NCBI RefSeq assembly: GCF_002105155.1
Contig: NW_019028995.1
Span: 310,001 to 374,000 of the forward strand
Direction: 5' to 3'
Source of the DNA: Lobosporangium transversale
Lineage: Eukaryota
DNA length: 64,000 nt
In this document: positions 55,435 through 64,000 of the stretch, one piece after another
Position numbering within the stretch: position 1 is the first letter of the stretch
How the letters are laid out: the number at the start of each line of letters is the position of its first letter
The notes under the pieces: model-generated
What the model saw: only the letters and a program-made list of their open reading frames with translations
The model's database searches: none
What the model was told of the DNA's origin: nothing
Translations under genes and position numbers: made by a program

Positions 55435-55723
55435 GATGTCAAAAGGGTGTTCGCCCTCATAAGCTAATTATTCCTCAATAACTGAGGGTTGTGGACATTA
55501 AAGTAAACTGATCTACACAAATGATGTCACGAAGATGCGATGCGATGTATCTGGTGTGATGGATGAAAACAAGAGAAAAGGCAAGTAAGCAGAGGAAGGA
55601 TACACAACAAGTGACAAGCAATCACATAAACAAAATGATCTATTAAACGCGCTTTTATGATGTGTATCAACTGTTGGTACATTTTTATTACTCTTTTCAT
55701 GCACTGACTATCCCTTTCCTTCT

Positions 55724-57293
55724 CTAGAACTTGAAGACATGGTCATTAGTTAATCCAAGCTCCTTCAAGGCACCATCAACATCACCTTGGGTGAAGTTAG
55801 GGCCTTTAGGTCCACTGACAGACTTCATCATAGCTAATAACAGACATGTCGAAATTAATTAACACGCAAATCCTAGTTTTGCTAACAGTTTAAACAAGGA
55901 AGGATCAAACTTACGTGGTGGTCCACAGACAAACACCTTGGTGTTGCCCTGTCCGATCTCAGGGTTGTACTTCTTGATTAGCTCAGCAGTAACGTATCCA
56001 GTAGGGCCAGTCCATCCCTCTACGGGTTTATCAACGACGTAGGTAACCTTGAAGCGGTCTGGATGGGCCTTAGCAAAGGCATCAATCTCATCCTTGAGAA
56101 TAATGTCTTCTGGAGTGACATTAGCGAAGATAAGGTTAATCTTAGTTTTATCTGCCTTATCTTTGAGGAGTCCACCGATGATCTGAATCATGGGTGTGAT
56201 ACCGGAACCACCAGCGATCAAGGTGACAGTCTCATGCTGGTTAGCTTTGAGAGGATACTTGCTGATAGGACCTAGCGTCGCACGCACAAGTTACGTATAC
56301 ACAAATCTACTCAATATGGCGCCAACATAATAACAAAAAAAAAAGATTCTTAAAAGTAATAATCGATACTGACCCTTGACAGACAGGGTGTCACCGGGTT
56401 TCATGCTATGGATGTGAGATGACATTGGACCTCCTGTTACATGTAGCATTTACGACATGAAGAAATTTTTAGTTTGTGTCATGACAGACAGGTACCAATT
56501 AAGTCAGACTGATATTTTCCGTGAGAAACATTTCTATCAAAAAAACACATACCTTCATAACGCTTGATGACAAAGTCGAATGAACCAGTACGATCAGAAT
56601 CAGAGGTAGGAGTGTAAGGACGAATAATAGGCTTGCCATCTTCTTTGATAAACTTGGTAACAACACAGGATGCTACATCCAAACCCAACTTCTGGTTCTC
56701 CTCCAGCTCAAATGTAAAGCGACTGGTGTTTGGAGTCAACTTTTGCACACTCTTCAACTTGAAGTCAACAAAGGCGTTAGGATCCAAAGCAGAGGAAACA
56801 GGGCCCTTCTTTGTAGCCTCATCTTCTACTGTGGGAGCGGTAGTAGATGCGCCTCCCAACTTGTCACCATAATACATATACGCGGCTACATTGGAAATTA
56901 TGTTAAAAAATCATGATAACAAGTAGAACTAAGATCTTCGCTATTTGTCATCTTGATGAATAGTCATGGTGGGAAGAGAGAGTCATATGGATATAAAAAA
57001 AAGAGAGAAAGAGGAAGGAGACAGACGACCTACCTGCAGCAGCGACACCAAGAGGAAGGCCAACAGTCAGCAACTTGCTGGAACCGCCCGCTGGCTTACT
57101 AGAAGTCGAGTAAGATTGCCTCTACAGGAAAGCATAGCAAAGGATAATTGTTTTAATTGAATCTCTCCAATCATTGTATCTGAATTCCCTTTGAACATTG
57201 GCCATAAGGAAGCTCATATGCAAGCAAATAGAAATATTAACATACTGAAAAGGCACGAATACTAGATTTGAAAGGGCTGATCAATCGGAACAT
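55724..57293 (-). CDS. MCR1: Mitochondrial NADH-cytochrome b5 reductase, multi-exon
   Basis: Motifs IIRPYTPTS (FAD-binding RxY(T/S)), LIAGGSGITPM.Q and VFVCGPP, a C-terminal VFKF*, and a presequence-like first exon MFRLISPFKSSIRAF. Confidence 0.92.
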
Positions 57294-57605
57294 CGTGAAC
57301 GCGAATGCAGAACAGAGTGGAGGAATGAGTCTGAAATAGAAACATTGCAAGGTGCGTGAATTCCAATTAAAAAACCAACTCTCAAATACGCCACATCCAT
57401 TAAATCCCACGCACGCCATGCAAATTTAATATTTCTCTTTTTTCACATATAAAGCATTAATTGCCACTCTTTCGCACTGTACTTTATTTTATTTTTTTAA
57501 TAACAGGGATCTCCAGGGATTAAGAAATACCTATGACTTATTGAGTCATTAAGCGCCTTTCATTATCGAGTATAGACAATATTGTCTGTAGACTTTTTTT
57601 TAATT

Positions 57606-57770
57606 ACAAGGACCCTCAGAGTCATGGGATGATGTTATCTGTTGATCTGTACGGTTTTTAAAGTTAGTCCAGAAATTCAAGGGCAAAAGATTAGGTAGAA
57701 AGGATACAGACGAAAATAAACAGAACTTACAAATTTTTTTGTGGGTGTGCCGGCACCCAAATACTTGTGT
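57606..57770 (-). ncRNA. Candidate Fanzor omegaRNA scaffold / element 3' end
   Basis: Lies directly 3' of the RuvC stop codon. It contains hairpins (TGGGTG..CACCCA at 57742-57759; GACCCTCAGAGTC at 57611-57623) and three blocks conserved in a second copy at 63602-63680. The RNA call is inference only. Confidence 0.4.
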
Positions 57771-60700
57771 CTAGCGTCGTGCGCGCTTTGCACCCGGAGC
57801 AGACGACTCTTCCGAGGGTTTGCACTTTGCAGGTCTCTCTTGCCTCTCAATTTGAGCAAGACCGATTCTTGCGATGTTTTCCGCCCCTACTGCGTCACGG
57901 TCGAAGAATACCTTACATGCGCGGCAATATTTAGAGCAAGGGTACACAGCCTCTAAAAAGCTATCGCAGAGGGGTCGGGGACAGCGGGCGCTGGTGTAAA
58001 ATTCGTGCGCCCCTACAGTGAAGTGTCCTCGTGCTTTGACCTAAGCGTTTCAAATGGCAGTCGTTTATTAGCAAAGGTTCTATGGCTTTCCAGCTTTTTT
58101 TACTTTTTTAAAAAAGTCATACCTGTGTGACAAGGTGTCTCGTTATAGTAGTGTGCTTGCTGGGAACTCCCTTACTACTTTCAAAGGACCCTAAGCCGAC
58201 GACAAGCACTCCTTTTTCCCCGAGCATCTTCAATACTCGCTGCACCGCATAGTCGAACGTAGCTCGTTGAGCCTTTCGTAAGTCCCATTTTTTTTTTTTA
58301 GGTGCCATCTGGACTCGTAGAACTCTTGAAGCACATCCAAATTCTTTGATCCTGTCTGTGTCTGGGATTCTTCGTTCATCCATTGAAAGTACTCGTTGTA
58401 CGCATCCCTTCCAAACACAGGGGATGGCGCTCTCAACCTCAATCATTCCTTTTTCACGCTTCCTTTTGTTCAACAGGTGATTGAAGCGGAGGACGGGGAG
58501 GTACAAGAACCTGCTTCTTACCTTCACCGTTTGCCGCAAGTTAGGGTTGTGAGGGTCCAGCGAGGAAAACGTAAGGGCGTTAACAATACCAGGATCACAT
58601 CCGACGATAGTTGTGGTGTTTGCGGATGGGCATCGCCCTGGCTTGTTGAATGTGAGCTCAACGTTTTCAAGCAGCTTGGAGCTCCTCTTCCAGTTTATGT
58701 TTGCATAGTCTTCATCTGTCAGGTCTTCACCGGCTGCCTTTGAACACGTCGTGTTGAGAAATCCCTGAGAAAACTCCAGTTCTTGGCTGGGGTCTTCTTC
58801 ATCTACGTCAGACTGCTGCTGTCTCTTCGTCTGGGTTGTGTCATAGGCAAGTAGATTCAGAACTAGACCGTTGGTAGAAATCGTTTCTTTGAGTTTGAAC
58901 CGAGTTATATCTTTGTCTTGTGACTGTAGGAATACTTTGTCTCGATATCCATGAACCATGCGATCACCTCCAATGTCACAAAAGAGAGCCTGTATCAAAA
59001 CCCCTTTTGTTCCCTGTACACACTCATACATTGCAGTCTTGGAAGCATTATTGAGAGGCAGAATGCGCTCCAGCAGCTGCTTGGTATCTTCGTTCGCCCA
59101 GAGGACGTCAACTAGGGCGTGTTCAGACAGATACACATACCTGGGTGACCAGGGGGGCGTAGGAAAGTCTGAGTATTTTTTCACTTTTTTGTTCTCCCGC
59201 AAAAAAAACTCAATGTCGCTCATATCTTCGTTTGTTTTCTGGACATCAAACTAGAAAAAAATAAAAGAGTCTGAATATAGAGCATTTGATTGCAGAATAT
59301 GCATGAAAATAACCTACACAAGGTTATACCATTGCGTTCCTGTAGTGCTGCCTTAATGATGTCTGTACTTGGCCCATTAGTAGCTCTGACGCTCTTGGAA
59401 ATGAGATCTTTTTGGGATCAAGCCTTGCACGTCCCCCAATGTGATGTCTATTTCCTTTATTGGGGAAAGTTCAGTGGTGGCCTTGAAATGTTCATAAGCG
59501 AGGATATAGTGGGCGTTTCTACCGCCCTTCCTTGTTTTTCTGCCCTCGCGTAAGCTGAATAGGGGGCCACCTTGGCCACTTAAAAGAAGGGTGGCGAGAC
59601 AGAAGGAATAGTTAGTGCTATCCAAGACCTCGTCCAGTGCCTTTTTCCTCGACCTTGCTACCCCTGGTAGCCGCATGATCCTCTCAATGTCCAAGGCAAT
59701 CGCCGAGTATGCATAGCGGCGTAGTCGGCTGCGGACAGCAACTGCCCCTCGGATCTGGCTTGCAATATTATCCCTTTCATCTGCGTCCAGTCTGCCTTTC
59801 CTTGCCATGGAAGCCTTGAGGGGTCCAATTGTTAAGGCCTTGATAGGATGCTTACTACTGTAGCTGTGATCAACCTTCGTAGCATCCTTCAAGTTCCTAA
59901 TTGGTGCACCTTCTTTTTTTACCCCTGTGGAGCTTCTTGCCTTTGTGCTTCCGCTTTTGTTTTTTCTGTTGCTCTTTTTTGCCTTTTTCCGACGTGGTGG
60001 ATGCCTAAGGCCCGGCCTATCGTGCTGACGGCAGTTACTGATATCAACTGTGCGCTCATTCAATATGCTCGGCTTGTCAGAAAAGATGGGCCGGTACTGG
60101 TTTCTATGTGACCCTTTCGCTATATAGAATGATGGTGCGTCTCTACACTATCCAAGAAAGGGACTAACGATTAGTATTGGGGACGTTTGGTTTCAGACCA
60201 AAACTATAGCTTGAGCTTTCTTACGTTCTGCGGCGCTGCGTTCGCCTTTGCTGAGCCATTCTATGACGAAGTTCCTTTCCTTTGAGTAGACACTGCTTGA
60301 AGTTATCGAACTCATTGTTCGATGGTAACGCTCGGGCCGACGTTTGATGGCCGGAAGTAAAAACACGGAGAGCTACTCTGAAACGGCCTTCTTCAGAGGC
60401 TGCGTTCCTTCCCAACATCTTACTAGCTTCCCTTAGGTAATCTCGAAGCATCTTATTGTAGTTTCTGCTCCACGCAACCTTTTGAATTAATTGAGGATTA
60501 TTAATCGGGCCCAACGTCTCGAGGTTCCTTGAGTAATCATTGCCTGCGATGGCACAGAATAACACCAGATATTCGTGTGATGGCAGGCTTAGTGCTTGGA
60601 TAACGTTATCTACATCGTAAACCCCAAACTTCTGTCTACGGTGTGGAGGGGGTCGCACTAGGATGCAGACTCGTTCGTACGCAAAAAAATCAGAGTCTTG

Positions 60701-61248
60701 GGATATCACGATCCTATCATTCTCCTCATTATGGCACCCTATGCATGGGTCCGCTTCATATGTACACAGACAGACATCGAAGACAGAGCCAAGGCCTATT
60801 GCCAGCTGATCCTTGAGGGTGTGGACTTCTCGAAGACCCTTCTGGATGCGCCTTATGACTTGAGGACGAGTCCATACCCCACTCTGAGAATTTCTCCCGA
60901 AGGCGTTCATATCGTTCTCCAAAGCATCCATATTTTTTTGTCTTATGGCTTGCCGTTCTGTTCTTGCTTTTTCTTTCTCATTACAAGGCCTCCCATCAAT
61001 ATGTATAGTCAGATTGTCCGTTTTAAAAAGATCCTTTATCTCGAGCGTCAGGGACCTTCCTACATCAATGATGGATTTGCTTTTCATCTTTGCATGGACG
61101 TCTCTACGGTGGATGTTGTAATAGAACGTACCGAGGAGATCTACATGAACAGAATGGTCAGGATTTGCCGCCAAGAAAGTGCCCACGTCAGTTTCCGAAG
61201 GTAAACCCCGCGATCCGCAACCAGTTTGAAGAAGAACTTCAGCCCCAT
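57771..61248 (-). CDS. PIN (FEN1/XPG-like) nuclease fused to Fanzor/TnpB-type RuvC endonuclease; 4 exons, about 1080 aa after repairing four homopolymer frameshifts
   Basis: Exons at 61248-60225, 60142-59330, 59250-58123 and 58040-57771 join in phase through GT-AG introns. PIN motifs: MGLKFFF, HVDL, HIDG..CNEK, EAD, SQDSDF, GNDY. RuvC-I is IVGCDPG, RuvC-II is AHEFYTSARC, the Zn finger is CPRPLC...CRAC and RuvC-III is DRDAVGAENI. Confidence 0.8.
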
Positions 61249-63565
61249 GATCAATATCTAAGCGAAGGAGAAAGAAAAAAGGAAAGATGGTGGTGATGAA
61301 AAGAAATGAAAAAGAAAAAAAAAGAGCGACAAAGGTATAAATGGATGAGCTTTTTTATGGTTTAAAGATCCAAAGTGAATAGATAAAGAATATTGAGGAA
61401 AAGATACAGGAACAAGTAGCAGTGGTAAAAGGGATGGGACTTTGGAGCGAGCGAGTGGGAAAGGAGGAAGACAATGATCCCTTTTTATATCCTGGATTGA
61501 TGATGAGTTTTATCATTGTCTCATATAGTTTTGATATCGATCCTTTGCTTCACAGGCCACATCAATTTTTATTCAGTTCCTTTGTTTGGATTGGGGTTTT
61601 GTCCAAGTCAATAGTAGAGATCGACAAATAAATACAAGCTCTCGCATGAATGGCAGATCGGAAACAATAGCACTGAGATACCAAAGTGAGCATTCAAAAA
61701 AATTATCTCCATATACAGCATACAGTGTTGATGTCGATCCTTTGTTATACAATTTTTTTTCAGTTTCTTTTTGCATTGGCCCTTGCTTTGTGAGGAATTT
61801 AATGAATAAAAAAAAAAATTATAGTATTAAACAAGGGTAGTAAATACGTTGACAGATTTGACTCGGTGTGTAGGAACTGGTTTTGAAACAGGTGATTACA
61901 TCCTTGTCAAAGGTAACAACAAGAGAAAAAAAAGTCTTTTTTATCAAAGAATGGGTTCAGATGTCGCTCTTTGCTCCAACAGCCCCAGTACTATTGTGTT
62001 AAAGCAGAGATATTCGTTGGCTCTCAGGTTTCGGCATCAATGGCGGAGATAGGAGTGATGTAGTTGCATGCGCTTATTGCTTGGAGTAAAAGCTATCTAA
62101 GCACCCTTTCTTACTGGACGATGCCTTGTTAATGGTGATATTGCGCAGCGCCTTGTGGATGGAGGGAGAGCAGAAGCGAGAGTGGTGGTTTTTGGCGGTC
62201 GTTTGGTGTGTGTATGTGCGAATTTGATGGTTGATACCAATCGCCAAATTATATGAATATAGAATTACAGAAGCGAGATTAATACCGACGCGTTTGAGTT
62301 TCTTTCCTTGAGATTGTTATAACCATGGGATGATTGCGGAGTGGCCACCAAAATAGTTTGTTTATTTCTTCTGGAGGCTCCATTGGAAAGCGCTTGTGTT
62401 TTGAAGTTGCCTAGAAAACAAAAAAAAAACGCCGCGATGCAAAATGTGTTTCTATGCGTGCAAAAACCAAAGAGATGCTTTAGCTGTTTATTCAATAGCC
62501 TGGTGCATGTTCATGTACACACGACTGATAGTGATTGATTAACAAAAGGAAACTCTCGTCTCATCCCATGCATGTACCGCCAAATATTTTCGAAACAATA
62601 AAAGGCATGTACAGACAACAAAGAAGCACGTCAACTGTTTGATTGCTTGATCAGTATCCTCCAGTTTACTCACGTATAATATTTTTTTCTATTCACTCTT
62701 GGCGTGCTTGTACGTCTATTAAGTTTTCTGTCTGGTCGTATAACACTAGGAACCCCCCACGCCAGAAAAAAAATACTTCCCATGGTTGGTGCCAGGTCTG
62801 AAAACAATAATAATAATGCACATGCCGTGCATGGAAGATAGGGCCTTGACACTATGACCATTGTTATGCAGACTCACCGAAATCAACTTGTGATCACAAC
62901 TGCTACTCATGCTCTGTTGCCAAGGGCTTGAAAAGGGACACAAACCTCTTCTTCCTTGTTCTCATAATCCCTCACATCCTTTCAATACTTTCGCCGTAAA
63001 TGTCCATTACATTTGAATCACACATAGGCACTTCACCATTACATATATCACCTTGGGTATGATACGTTGGTGTGGTTCCCTCCAGTTTCAACAGGCCCAA
63101 CAAACTCTATTAGCAGTGCTTACCAACCCAGATATATCAAAGGAACGCAAGAAGACGAGGAAGCAAACGATGTGAAAAATCAGGTCTCGCCGAGTTGTAC
63201 AGGAAAAGATCAAGTTAGTCAAGCTTCATGGTGCGGTAGAATGAATCAACTCAGATTGCACTGCTTTCAAGTCGAGACTACGGCGGCGAATATTACCATT
63301 GCTATATTACACCAGTCAATAAATAAACGATACAATGGGCTCCCAAGCGGATGCTAGAGTCATGCGAAAGTTTTCATGAGTTTTTTTATTTGCACAAATA
63401 AAGAAGCCAGGATAGTTCCTGGATTTTAAGCCCATTTATAATGGTAAATTTGCCCTTGTTATGGATGAAGGGATAATACTAACGTAGATGGTGGGGATTT
63501 ATGTCTGTTTCGTCCAGCGTTCAGCCGTTCTTTCAGGATCGTCCCGCGCAGCTATCGCTCGACTT

Positions 63566-63598
<33 letters not shown>

Positions 63599-63601
63599 AT
63601 A

Positions 63602-63680
63602 ACAAGGACCCTCAGGGTCATGGGATTTATTTTCTACACTCTATGAACAAAATGCTCCAGAAACTATAGTCAATAAACAG
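63602..63680 (-). repeat. Second copy of the element-end motif
   Basis: ACAAGGACCCTCAGGGTCATGGGAT (63602-63626) is 24/25 identical to 57606-57630. It is followed by the shared blocks TCCAGAAA and AATAAACAG and preceded by poly-T. Confidence 0.8.
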
Positions 63681-63795
63681 CTATTACTGCACAAACGACA
63701 AGAGCCGCTGTATCCATGATTTCATAAACCCTGACCGCCGTGGTTGGTACTCAAAGTCCACCTTTCCGACGTGGCCTGTTGCGCAACGCGACAAA

Positions 63796-63999
63796 TTATC
63801 CGCTATCCATAGTCATCAAAAACTTCATTCCACCTAGCCGCTCCATCACGTCCAGTTTGGTTTTCCCAAGGTAACTGTCCCGGACTCGGTCATCCGCGAT
63901 CTTGTAGATCTCTTTTACATTCAGCTTCTGTCTTTGTCTGAGGGAAGGGACAAGGAAATCATTGCTACTACGTCTGTGCTCCCCAACACAGTTGCGTCC
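63796..63999 (-). CDS. C-terminal end of an unidentified ORF running in from the right edge
   Basis: Open frame GRNCVGEHRRSSNDFLVPSLRQRQKLNVKEIYKIADDRVRDSYLGKTKLDVMERLGGMKFLMTMDSG*. The sequence is GC-richer than its flank; no family was recognised. Confidence 0.4.
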   Translation of the reverse strand, partial: GRNCVGEHRRSSNDFLVPSLRQRQKLNVKEIYKIADDRVRDSYLGKTKLDVMERLGGMKFLMTMDSG

Positions 64000-64000
64000 T

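Follow-up and report, generated by a model that had tools for sequence, protein, structure and literature searches.

What lies at the 3' side of the Fanzor gene in the window, by which we mean the whole 64,000-nt stretch of Lobosporangium transversale DNA analysed here, is probably the right end of a multi-copy Fanzor1 transposon whose guide RNA gene is split by an 84-nt spliceosomal intron, so that the working guide would be a spliced RNA. A hairpin is followed, just before the element ends, by a full set of intron signals, and on this ground the guide RNA is likely assembled by splicing (Table 1).

Table 1. Features of the Fanzor1 element and its flank (positions count from the first letter of the window).
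Feature	Position	Strand	Remarks
Fanzor1 gene	57771..61248	minus	ATG at 61248, stop at 57773-57771; three coding introns
Coding intron 1, 82 nt	60143..60224	minus	skipped by an X7 contig (joint 60139-60225)
Coding intron 2, 79 nt	59251..59329	minus	skipped by an X7 contig (joint 59249-59330)
Coding intron 3, 82 nt	58041..58122	minus	predicted from frame and signals; an X7 contig enters it unspliced
Hairpin SL1, 6 bp, 6-nt loop	57742..57759	minus	predicted first omegaRNA stem
A-rich linker ending in UUU	57731..57741	minus	predicted end of the 5' exon
Predicted spliceosomal intron, 84 nt	57647..57730	minus	GTAAGT 57730-57725; GACTAAC 57669-57663; AG 57648-57647
Predicted 3' exon, 11 nt	57636..57646	minus	ends in TA at the boundary common to copies
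Would-be spacer of the window copy	57621..57635	minus	flanking DNA; about 15 nt by analogy with SpuFz1
Candidate left end	62586..62625		degenerate inverted match to 57635-57676; 2 of 360 background tiles score equally
Palindromic 25-mer	57606..57630		marks the end of another repeat and is not part of the Fanzor element; found again at 63602-63626

The window consists of intron-rich fungal DNA, and as judged from its sequence the gene encodes a Fanzor1 nuclease, as originally predicted. The C-terminus matches Pfam PF07282 (E 1.1e-05, 26 bits against a cut-off of 26.3), and the Fanzor1 motif of Bao and Jurka 2013 (PMC3627910), D-X(125,275)-[TS]-[TS]-X-X-C4 zinc finger-X(5,50)-RD, is found as GCDPG, HEFYTSARC, the C4 finger and FDRD, spread over the frames of the window copy. 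A structure model of a relative (P0008, pLDDT 83.8) finds SpuFz1, PpFz1 and GtFz1 in a Foldseek search, in which the top matches are Fanzor1 proteins (SpuFz1, E 1e-10) and FEN1/Exo1 reaches E 2e-9. ORZ22893.1, by eye a close paralog, carries the FZ1 label in the tree table of Saito 2023 (PMC10432273), and the protein family is already catalogued as Fz1. Those relatives that bear a name are annotated as hypothetical proteins, from Mortierella, Gamsiella, Lobosporangium and Podila, which makes a host in the Mortierellaceae likely. No relative was confirmed among 68 candidates in viral contigs or 33 candidates in prokaryote genomes, and an Atlas search returned only the Cas12f1-like cluster of the Fanzor1 family itself. 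The frame of the window copy is not intact: it is shifted about six times, near 61202, 59972, 59914, 59419, 58420 and 58288, and indels between copies fall at these places. The RuvC D/E/D residues and the C4 zinc finger are present in this copy.

Upstream of the Fanzor1 portion, the protein carries an N-terminal FEN1/Exo1-like nuclease domain of the XPG family (window 60225-61248, minus strand), which recurs with its acidic motifs kept in P0001, P0008, P0013 and P0015. The Pfam match of this end to XPG_I is weak (E 0.042), and a profile built from 11 relatives has Exo1/FEN1 as its best match in the PDB (E 9.8e-05), with SpuFz1 at E 0.0045. We found no paper treating Fanzor and XPG together in the literature searched, which mostly excluded subscription papers, and the available part of a PIN-domain survey (PMC5499597) does not mention TnpB or RuvC. 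Such a fusion is a possible built-in end-processing activity. On the other side of the element, a host gene adjoins it at 55720-57100 (minus strand); judged by motifs in its translation, it is a putative NADH-cytochrome b5 reductase gene.

Copies of the element were studied through contigs from three sequencing runs (X1, X7 and X8) placed on the window, where X7 is, by our guess, an RNA run and the contigs carry no strand information. Contigs in the flank have a depth of about 130, against thousands from 57562 to past 62449, which marks the element as a repeat of about 5 kb present in multiple copies; the depth ratios of 40-100 over the flank are to be read as many copies and not as a copy count. 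X7 contigs further suggest transcription of the element, with introns 1 and 2 removed from the transcript. At least eight X1 and at least three X7 contigs start at 57636/57635 with long and mutually unlike flanks (three runs on 57550-57820), one X8 contig also begins at 57636, and depth rises there from about 1900 to more than 10000. Because copies change flank at this point, 57636 is the last position of the element, which on the minus strand finishes in TA. The sequence is conserved from the stop to this end and gives way to variable flank, and the same is seen in two related loci, L003 and L005. The original prediction had placed a 165-nt guide RNA scaffold at 57606-57770, closed by the palindromic 25-mer, with an A-rich spacer from about 57605, and had suggested looking for a sharp drop in conservation at its boundary. 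The drop is there, at 57636/57635 and not near 57605, so the 25-mer is part of a separate repeat outside the element, 57635-57621 would serve as spacer, and the A-rich spacer was wrong.

The 25-mer is a real repeat even so, and its two copies in the window stand in the same orientation. The palindrome itself (57611-57623) has, as had been noticed, a single mismatch that becomes U-G on the minus strand, though its 1-nt loop allows only five pairs to close. On the minus strand the 25-mer is followed by a run of eight A and about 30 further letters (57594-57630 and 63568-63626), a weak third copy lies at 57491-57527, and the interiors beyond the two 25-mer copies, where the two sequence blocks of the original prediction lie, resemble each other no better than shuffled sequence does (296 of 1000 shuffles reach the score). 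A separate set of contigs, at least three from X1 and at least one from X7, covers only 57594 to 57627-57628, with unlike flanks at 57594, and stops outside the element; among the contigs listed, only one from the window locus itself joins this repeat to the Fanzor element. The 25-mer repeat may be the 3' terminus of a retroelement with poly(A), and its pattern had no match in metagenome contigs. The copy at 63568-63626 lies downstream of the end of an ORF (63799-63999, no Pfam match) that leaves the window.

The left side of the element is less sharp, with depth dropping in the 62449-62600 bin and further contigs crossing 62600. Compared with a Tc1/mariner-type element, which has inverted repeats at its ends and duplicates a TA target, the element has TA at its right boundary, the candidate left end is degenerate and has TC at the place that matches this TA, and three ORFs of 61538-62510 gave no match to any Pfam family, a DDE transposase included. 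A reading as Helitron2 was rejected, as the hairpin 25-mer lies outside the element and a 10-nt inverted match at 62561-62570 is at chance level. Insertion of the element into a copy of the repeat at 63600 also found no support, with the likeness of 62600-63000 to 63620-64000 at background (161 of 312 tiles). An imperfect direct repeat (61522-61594 and 61719-61779, 71% over 73 columns) lies in the 1.3 kb that precede the Fanzor1 gene, and a 20-nt near-perfect inverted repeat lies at 57571-57590, in single-copy flank 45 nt past the other end of the element.

The motifs reported earlier between the stop and the 25-mer are all present, namely the stem TGGGTG/CACCCA at 57742-57759, AATAAACAG at 57715-57723, TCCAGAAA at 57668-57675 and the palindrome. 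The description of the region as hairpin-rich does not hold. Folded on the minus strand, 57606-57770 has a z of 0.10 and 106 of 200 shuffles fold equally well, none of 22 minus-strand windows that end at 57635/57636 reaches z < -0.3, and a perfect 6-bp stem like the one singled out occurs in 505 of 2000 shuffles and 89 of 387 window tiles. What had been overlooked is that 84 nt of the supposed contiguous scaffold carry spliceosomal intron signals. GTAAGT, GACTAAC and CAG follow one another in the order of a U2-type intron, and the length compares with 79-82 nt for the three coding introns of the gene. We take GTAAGT and GACTAAC to be the fungal donor and branch consensus. The predicted acceptor AG is the first downstream of the branch motif, and there is no other AG inside the 84-nt stretch. 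After splicing, the last four bases of the 3' exon would pair with 57731 and 57646-57644 to form a second stem, SL2; no SL2 forms if the second AG (57640-57639) is used as acceptor. The predicted spliced RNA folds into exactly two stems. Rfam gave only a chance match on 57300-58100 (CrcZ, 10 bits against 95) and no group I ribozyme core.

Variation between copies concentrates in the interior of the predicted intron (57678-57713). This part holds 16 of the 19 listed substitutions and 8 of the 10 listed indels, none of the listed variation falls in 57636-57677, and no listed substitution falls in 57714-57744; single records (X7 11, X8 17 and X8 19) have 3-4 differences in about 57636-57677. Within the family, two of the three substitutions in SL1 break a pair and none is compensated. 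None of the ten X7 contigs on 57550-57820 contains the spliced junction, though a junction contig may overlap the window too little to be placed, and one X7 contig covers 57645-57761 unspliced. One contig begins three letters before 57735, at the predicted donor, a weak hint only that a genomic variant could explain. The most abundant X7 contig at the element end lacks SL1 and the donor. X7 record 11 (2815 nt, depth 214) is placed on 57636-57679 and again from 57759, with SL1 and the donor lost, and is probably a decayed element copy inside another transcript.

A metagenome scan confirmed nine related loci from 272 candidates, which with the window makes ten, or nine independent loci when L003 and L005 are counted once. 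GTAAGT stands 26-57 nt after the stop in L003, L004, L005, L006, L007, L009 and the window, that is in 7 of 10 loci and 6 of 9 independent ones, and its occurrence within 60 nt of the stop has P of about 3e-10 at the window background rate; it is absent near the stop in L001, L002 and L008. In all six independent loci with the donor a hairpin ends 10-15 nt before it, with stem sequences that differ (combined Fisher p 0.0025; none of 32 control GTAAGT sites at p<=0.05), although single loci give p 0.003-0.31 and only one of six falls below 0.05. Covariation had been proposed as a check, and the outcome is divided: in the RNAalifold consensus of SL1 across loci four of five pairs show both-sided change, but the covariation term is unfavourable (+0.36). 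A scaffold 3' of the stop is in the expected place and its stem has positional counterparts in relatives, and the omegaRNA locus as first proposed is partly right, with the wrong boundary.

The stem that would close the end of the RNA after predicted splicing is 4 bp in the window (background 0.11) and 5 bp in L003 (0.04), and at predicted ends it is 4 bp in L007 (0.06) and 3 bp in L009 (0.17), so that each test is weak alone (p 0.04-0.17). Minimum-energy folds of the spliced RNA place SL2 of L003/L005 in a shifted register and give L009 another fold. L003 and L005 have two tandem introns around a 6-nt microexon in the predicted guide RNA gene (L003 435-649, L005 1692-1892), and the sequence common to both breaks off 7 nt past the last AAG, in TA as in the window. 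L001, whose end is likewise predicted, has a 7-bp SL1 and a contiguous 4-bp SL2 at 2385-2430 without a donor motif, and may be an intronless counterpart of these guide RNA genes. Measured against an SL1 of about 7 bp and an SL2 beside the guide, the window thus has an SL1 of 6 bp with cross-locus support and an SL2 that would form only after splicing, the unspliced RNA forming a long helix instead.

A comparable layout can be found in published elements, whose ends we read by eye and whose acceptors we chose after seeing them. Among the last 330-380 letters of 12 Mucorales Fanzor1 families with a defined right end in the available part of PMC3627910, a donor-like GT after a hairpin together with an AG 2-12 nt from the end occurs in seven (ROr-1, ROr-2, ROr-3, PBl-1, PBl-3, MCi-1 and MCi-4) and is absent in ROr-4, MCi-2, MCi-3, MCi-5 and MCi-7. 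Five of these fitting families have TA or TAN as target duplication, and in all five a stem of 4-6 bp joins the end of the first exon to the last bases plus TA after splicing; in ROr-1 and ROr-3, with inverted repeats of 90 and 133 bp, respectively, the intron would remove most of the repeat. The terminal non-coding parts accessible for SPu-1, PUl-1, MDe-6 and MDe-7 lack the donor motif. DFa-1, a Sola2 Fanzor1 element from a slime mould, combines GTAAGT with a branch-like motif, a tract of pyrimidines and an AG that stands 3 nt from its end. Two Parasitella omegaRNAs mapped in yeast (IDs 58 and 59 in the supplement of Saito 2023, PMC10432273) both have CAG/GTAAGC about 12 nt after SL1 and remain alike past it; the end of ID 59 consists of a branch-like motif with a run of pyrimidines. 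As far as their sequences tell, these RNAs resemble SL1 plus an unspliced intron, and the guide segment of PpFz1 may be intron sequence. The word 'intron' does not occur in the main text of Xu 2024 (PMC11423790).

We infer splicing, RNA ends, protein binding and cleavage alike in the pathway that would follow. A polymerase II transcript of the element would run through its end into the flank, and the spliceosome would join 57731 to 57646. The product would have two stems, SL1 and a 4-bp SL2 that the terminal TA closes, with the A-rich linker between them and a spacer of about 15 nt behind; its spliced scaffold of 40-50 nt would take the two-stem form known from the structures of SpuFz1 and PpFz1. 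The intron would let the element retain the terminal DNA needed for transposition while keeping it out of the RNA scaffold. The protein of an intact family member would bind this RNA and cut empty insertion sites, as proposed for TnpB and Fanzor. As the protein of the window copy is frameshifted, its RNA could act only in trans. Its would-be spacer has no other match with two or fewer mismatches in the window and so would not target the second 25-mer copy.

These observations could also be read without a spliced guide. An unspliced omegaRNA of 125-135 nt, ending at 57636 with the spacer behind it and built from SL1 and a long helix, would turn the splice signals into an off-switch, as in IStrons, or an aid to read-through. 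The long helix (57724-57702 with 57652-57638) is predicted with high pairing confidence in the unspliced window RNA, contigs of the probable RNA run cover the stretch unspliced, and Xu 2024 (PMC11423790) reports both little constraint beyond SL1 and DNA cleavage supported by unspliced PpFz1 RNA made in yeast. We nevertheless think this arrangement unlikely, since copies vary most in the 5' arm of that helix (a common 3-nt insertion and deletions of 12 and 42 nt), the helix leaves the terminal TA unpaired that the spliced form pairs, and the stems that close on TA across spliced junctions in the five published elements would go unexplained.

It is more doubtful still that there is no working guide RNA at all and that the stretch, in a dead copy, is a plain intron in the 3' UTR of the Fanzor mRNA that overlaps a terminal inverted repeat. 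The frameshifted gene, the lack of excess folding or an Rfam match in the region, and a degenerate inverted match at the left end that could account for terminal conservation all fit such a copy; it would leave unexplained the fixed distance between hairpin and donor across divergent loci and the stems that form only across the junction, and the RuvC and zinc-finger residues are kept across the family. The contiguous 165-nt scaffold ending with the 25-mer at 57606, before an A-rich spacer from 57605, now seems very improbable. The repeat nature of the 25-mer and the contigs with unlike flanks that start at 57594 speak for a real boundary there, but those contigs stop at 57627-57628, outside the element, the element copies switch flank at 57636/57635, and the only bridging contig comes from the window locus. 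A spliced guide RNA is the reading we prefer, and a likely one.

Among characterised systems, SpuFz1 of Spizellomyces punctatus (Spu-1; PMC10432273, PMC11423790) shares the Fanzor1 fold with relative P0008 and the TA end with the window, and its RNA has what is predicted for the window RNA, a start just after the stop, SL1 and SL2, and a guide derived from the flank; unlike the window, Spu-1 has a contiguous RNA with a 75-nt scaffold that incorporates the inverted repeat, its end (SPu-1) is without the donor motif, and its protein of about 630 aa has no FEN1-like domain. PpFz1 of Parasitella parasitica (PMC11423790) is likewise a Fanzor1 of the Mucoromycota, with a 7-bp SL1, a 4-bp SL2 beside the guide, and CAG/GTAAGC at the position equivalent to the window donor, but it is described as a contiguous RNA mapped in S. 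cerevisiae and its protein has an FRI insertion. The 7-bp SL1 is common to all three Fz1 structures compared by Xu 2024 (PMC11423790), the 4-bp SL2 being given for PpFz1. ROr-1/2/3, PBl-1, MCi-1 and MCi-4 (PMC3627910) share the hairpin, the donor, the AG 2-12 nt from the end and mostly branch-like motifs; these Mucorales transposons, in contrast, were described as DNA elements before guide RNAs were known of, with both ends and the superfamily defined as they are not here. The available part of Bao and Jurka 2013 (PMC3627910) contains no mention of a terminal intron.

IStrons, which combine a group I intron with an IS605/IS607 TnpB (10.1101/2023.11.20.567912; review PMC13565253), likewise make the right end of the transposon both 3' splice site and guide scaffold. 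There, however, a self-splicing ribozyme spans the whole element and splicing excludes omegaRNA function, whereas in the window the signals are spliceosomal and internal to the RNA gene, so that the guide would arise through splicing. In the Fanzor literature searched, by titles and abstracts and mostly outside subscription papers, we found no spliced omegaRNA, and in the literature searched, again with few subscription papers, no paper on Fanzor in Mortierella or Mucoromycota. Introns in Fanzor genes are discussed by Jiang 2023 (PMC10530073), in the available part of which we found no spliced guide RNA.

Taken beyond this one element, we lean towards the view that a wide range of eukaryotic Fanzor1 transposons, in Mortierellaceae, Mucorales and possibly slime moulds, make their guide RNA with the host spliceosome, the intron excising the terminal repeat and joining a 40-50-nt scaffold to the spacer. 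On this view, what was published as the PpFz1 omegaRNA would be an RNA left unspliced in yeast, with intron sequence as its guide, and the RNA of the Mortierellaceae would serve a FEN1/Exo1-like fusion protein. If true, Fanzor guide RNA biogenesis would be directly testable from junction reads, and very small natural scaffolds would be predicted for a large and mostly uncharacterised Fanzor1 group. OmegaRNAs mapped in budding yeast or in cell-free systems could then be artefacts that escaped splicing, a caution that extends to the PpFz1 RNA as published. Two ways are known for an RNA-guided nuclease to live with a captured transposon end: the end can be incorporated in the scaffold, as in the Fanzor1 RNAs of Yoon 2023 (PMC10711439), which take in inverted repeats along with target duplications and have a stem at their end, or it can compete with the guide, as in IStrons. 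Splicing the end out of the guide would be a third way, and one open to a eukaryotic nuclease.
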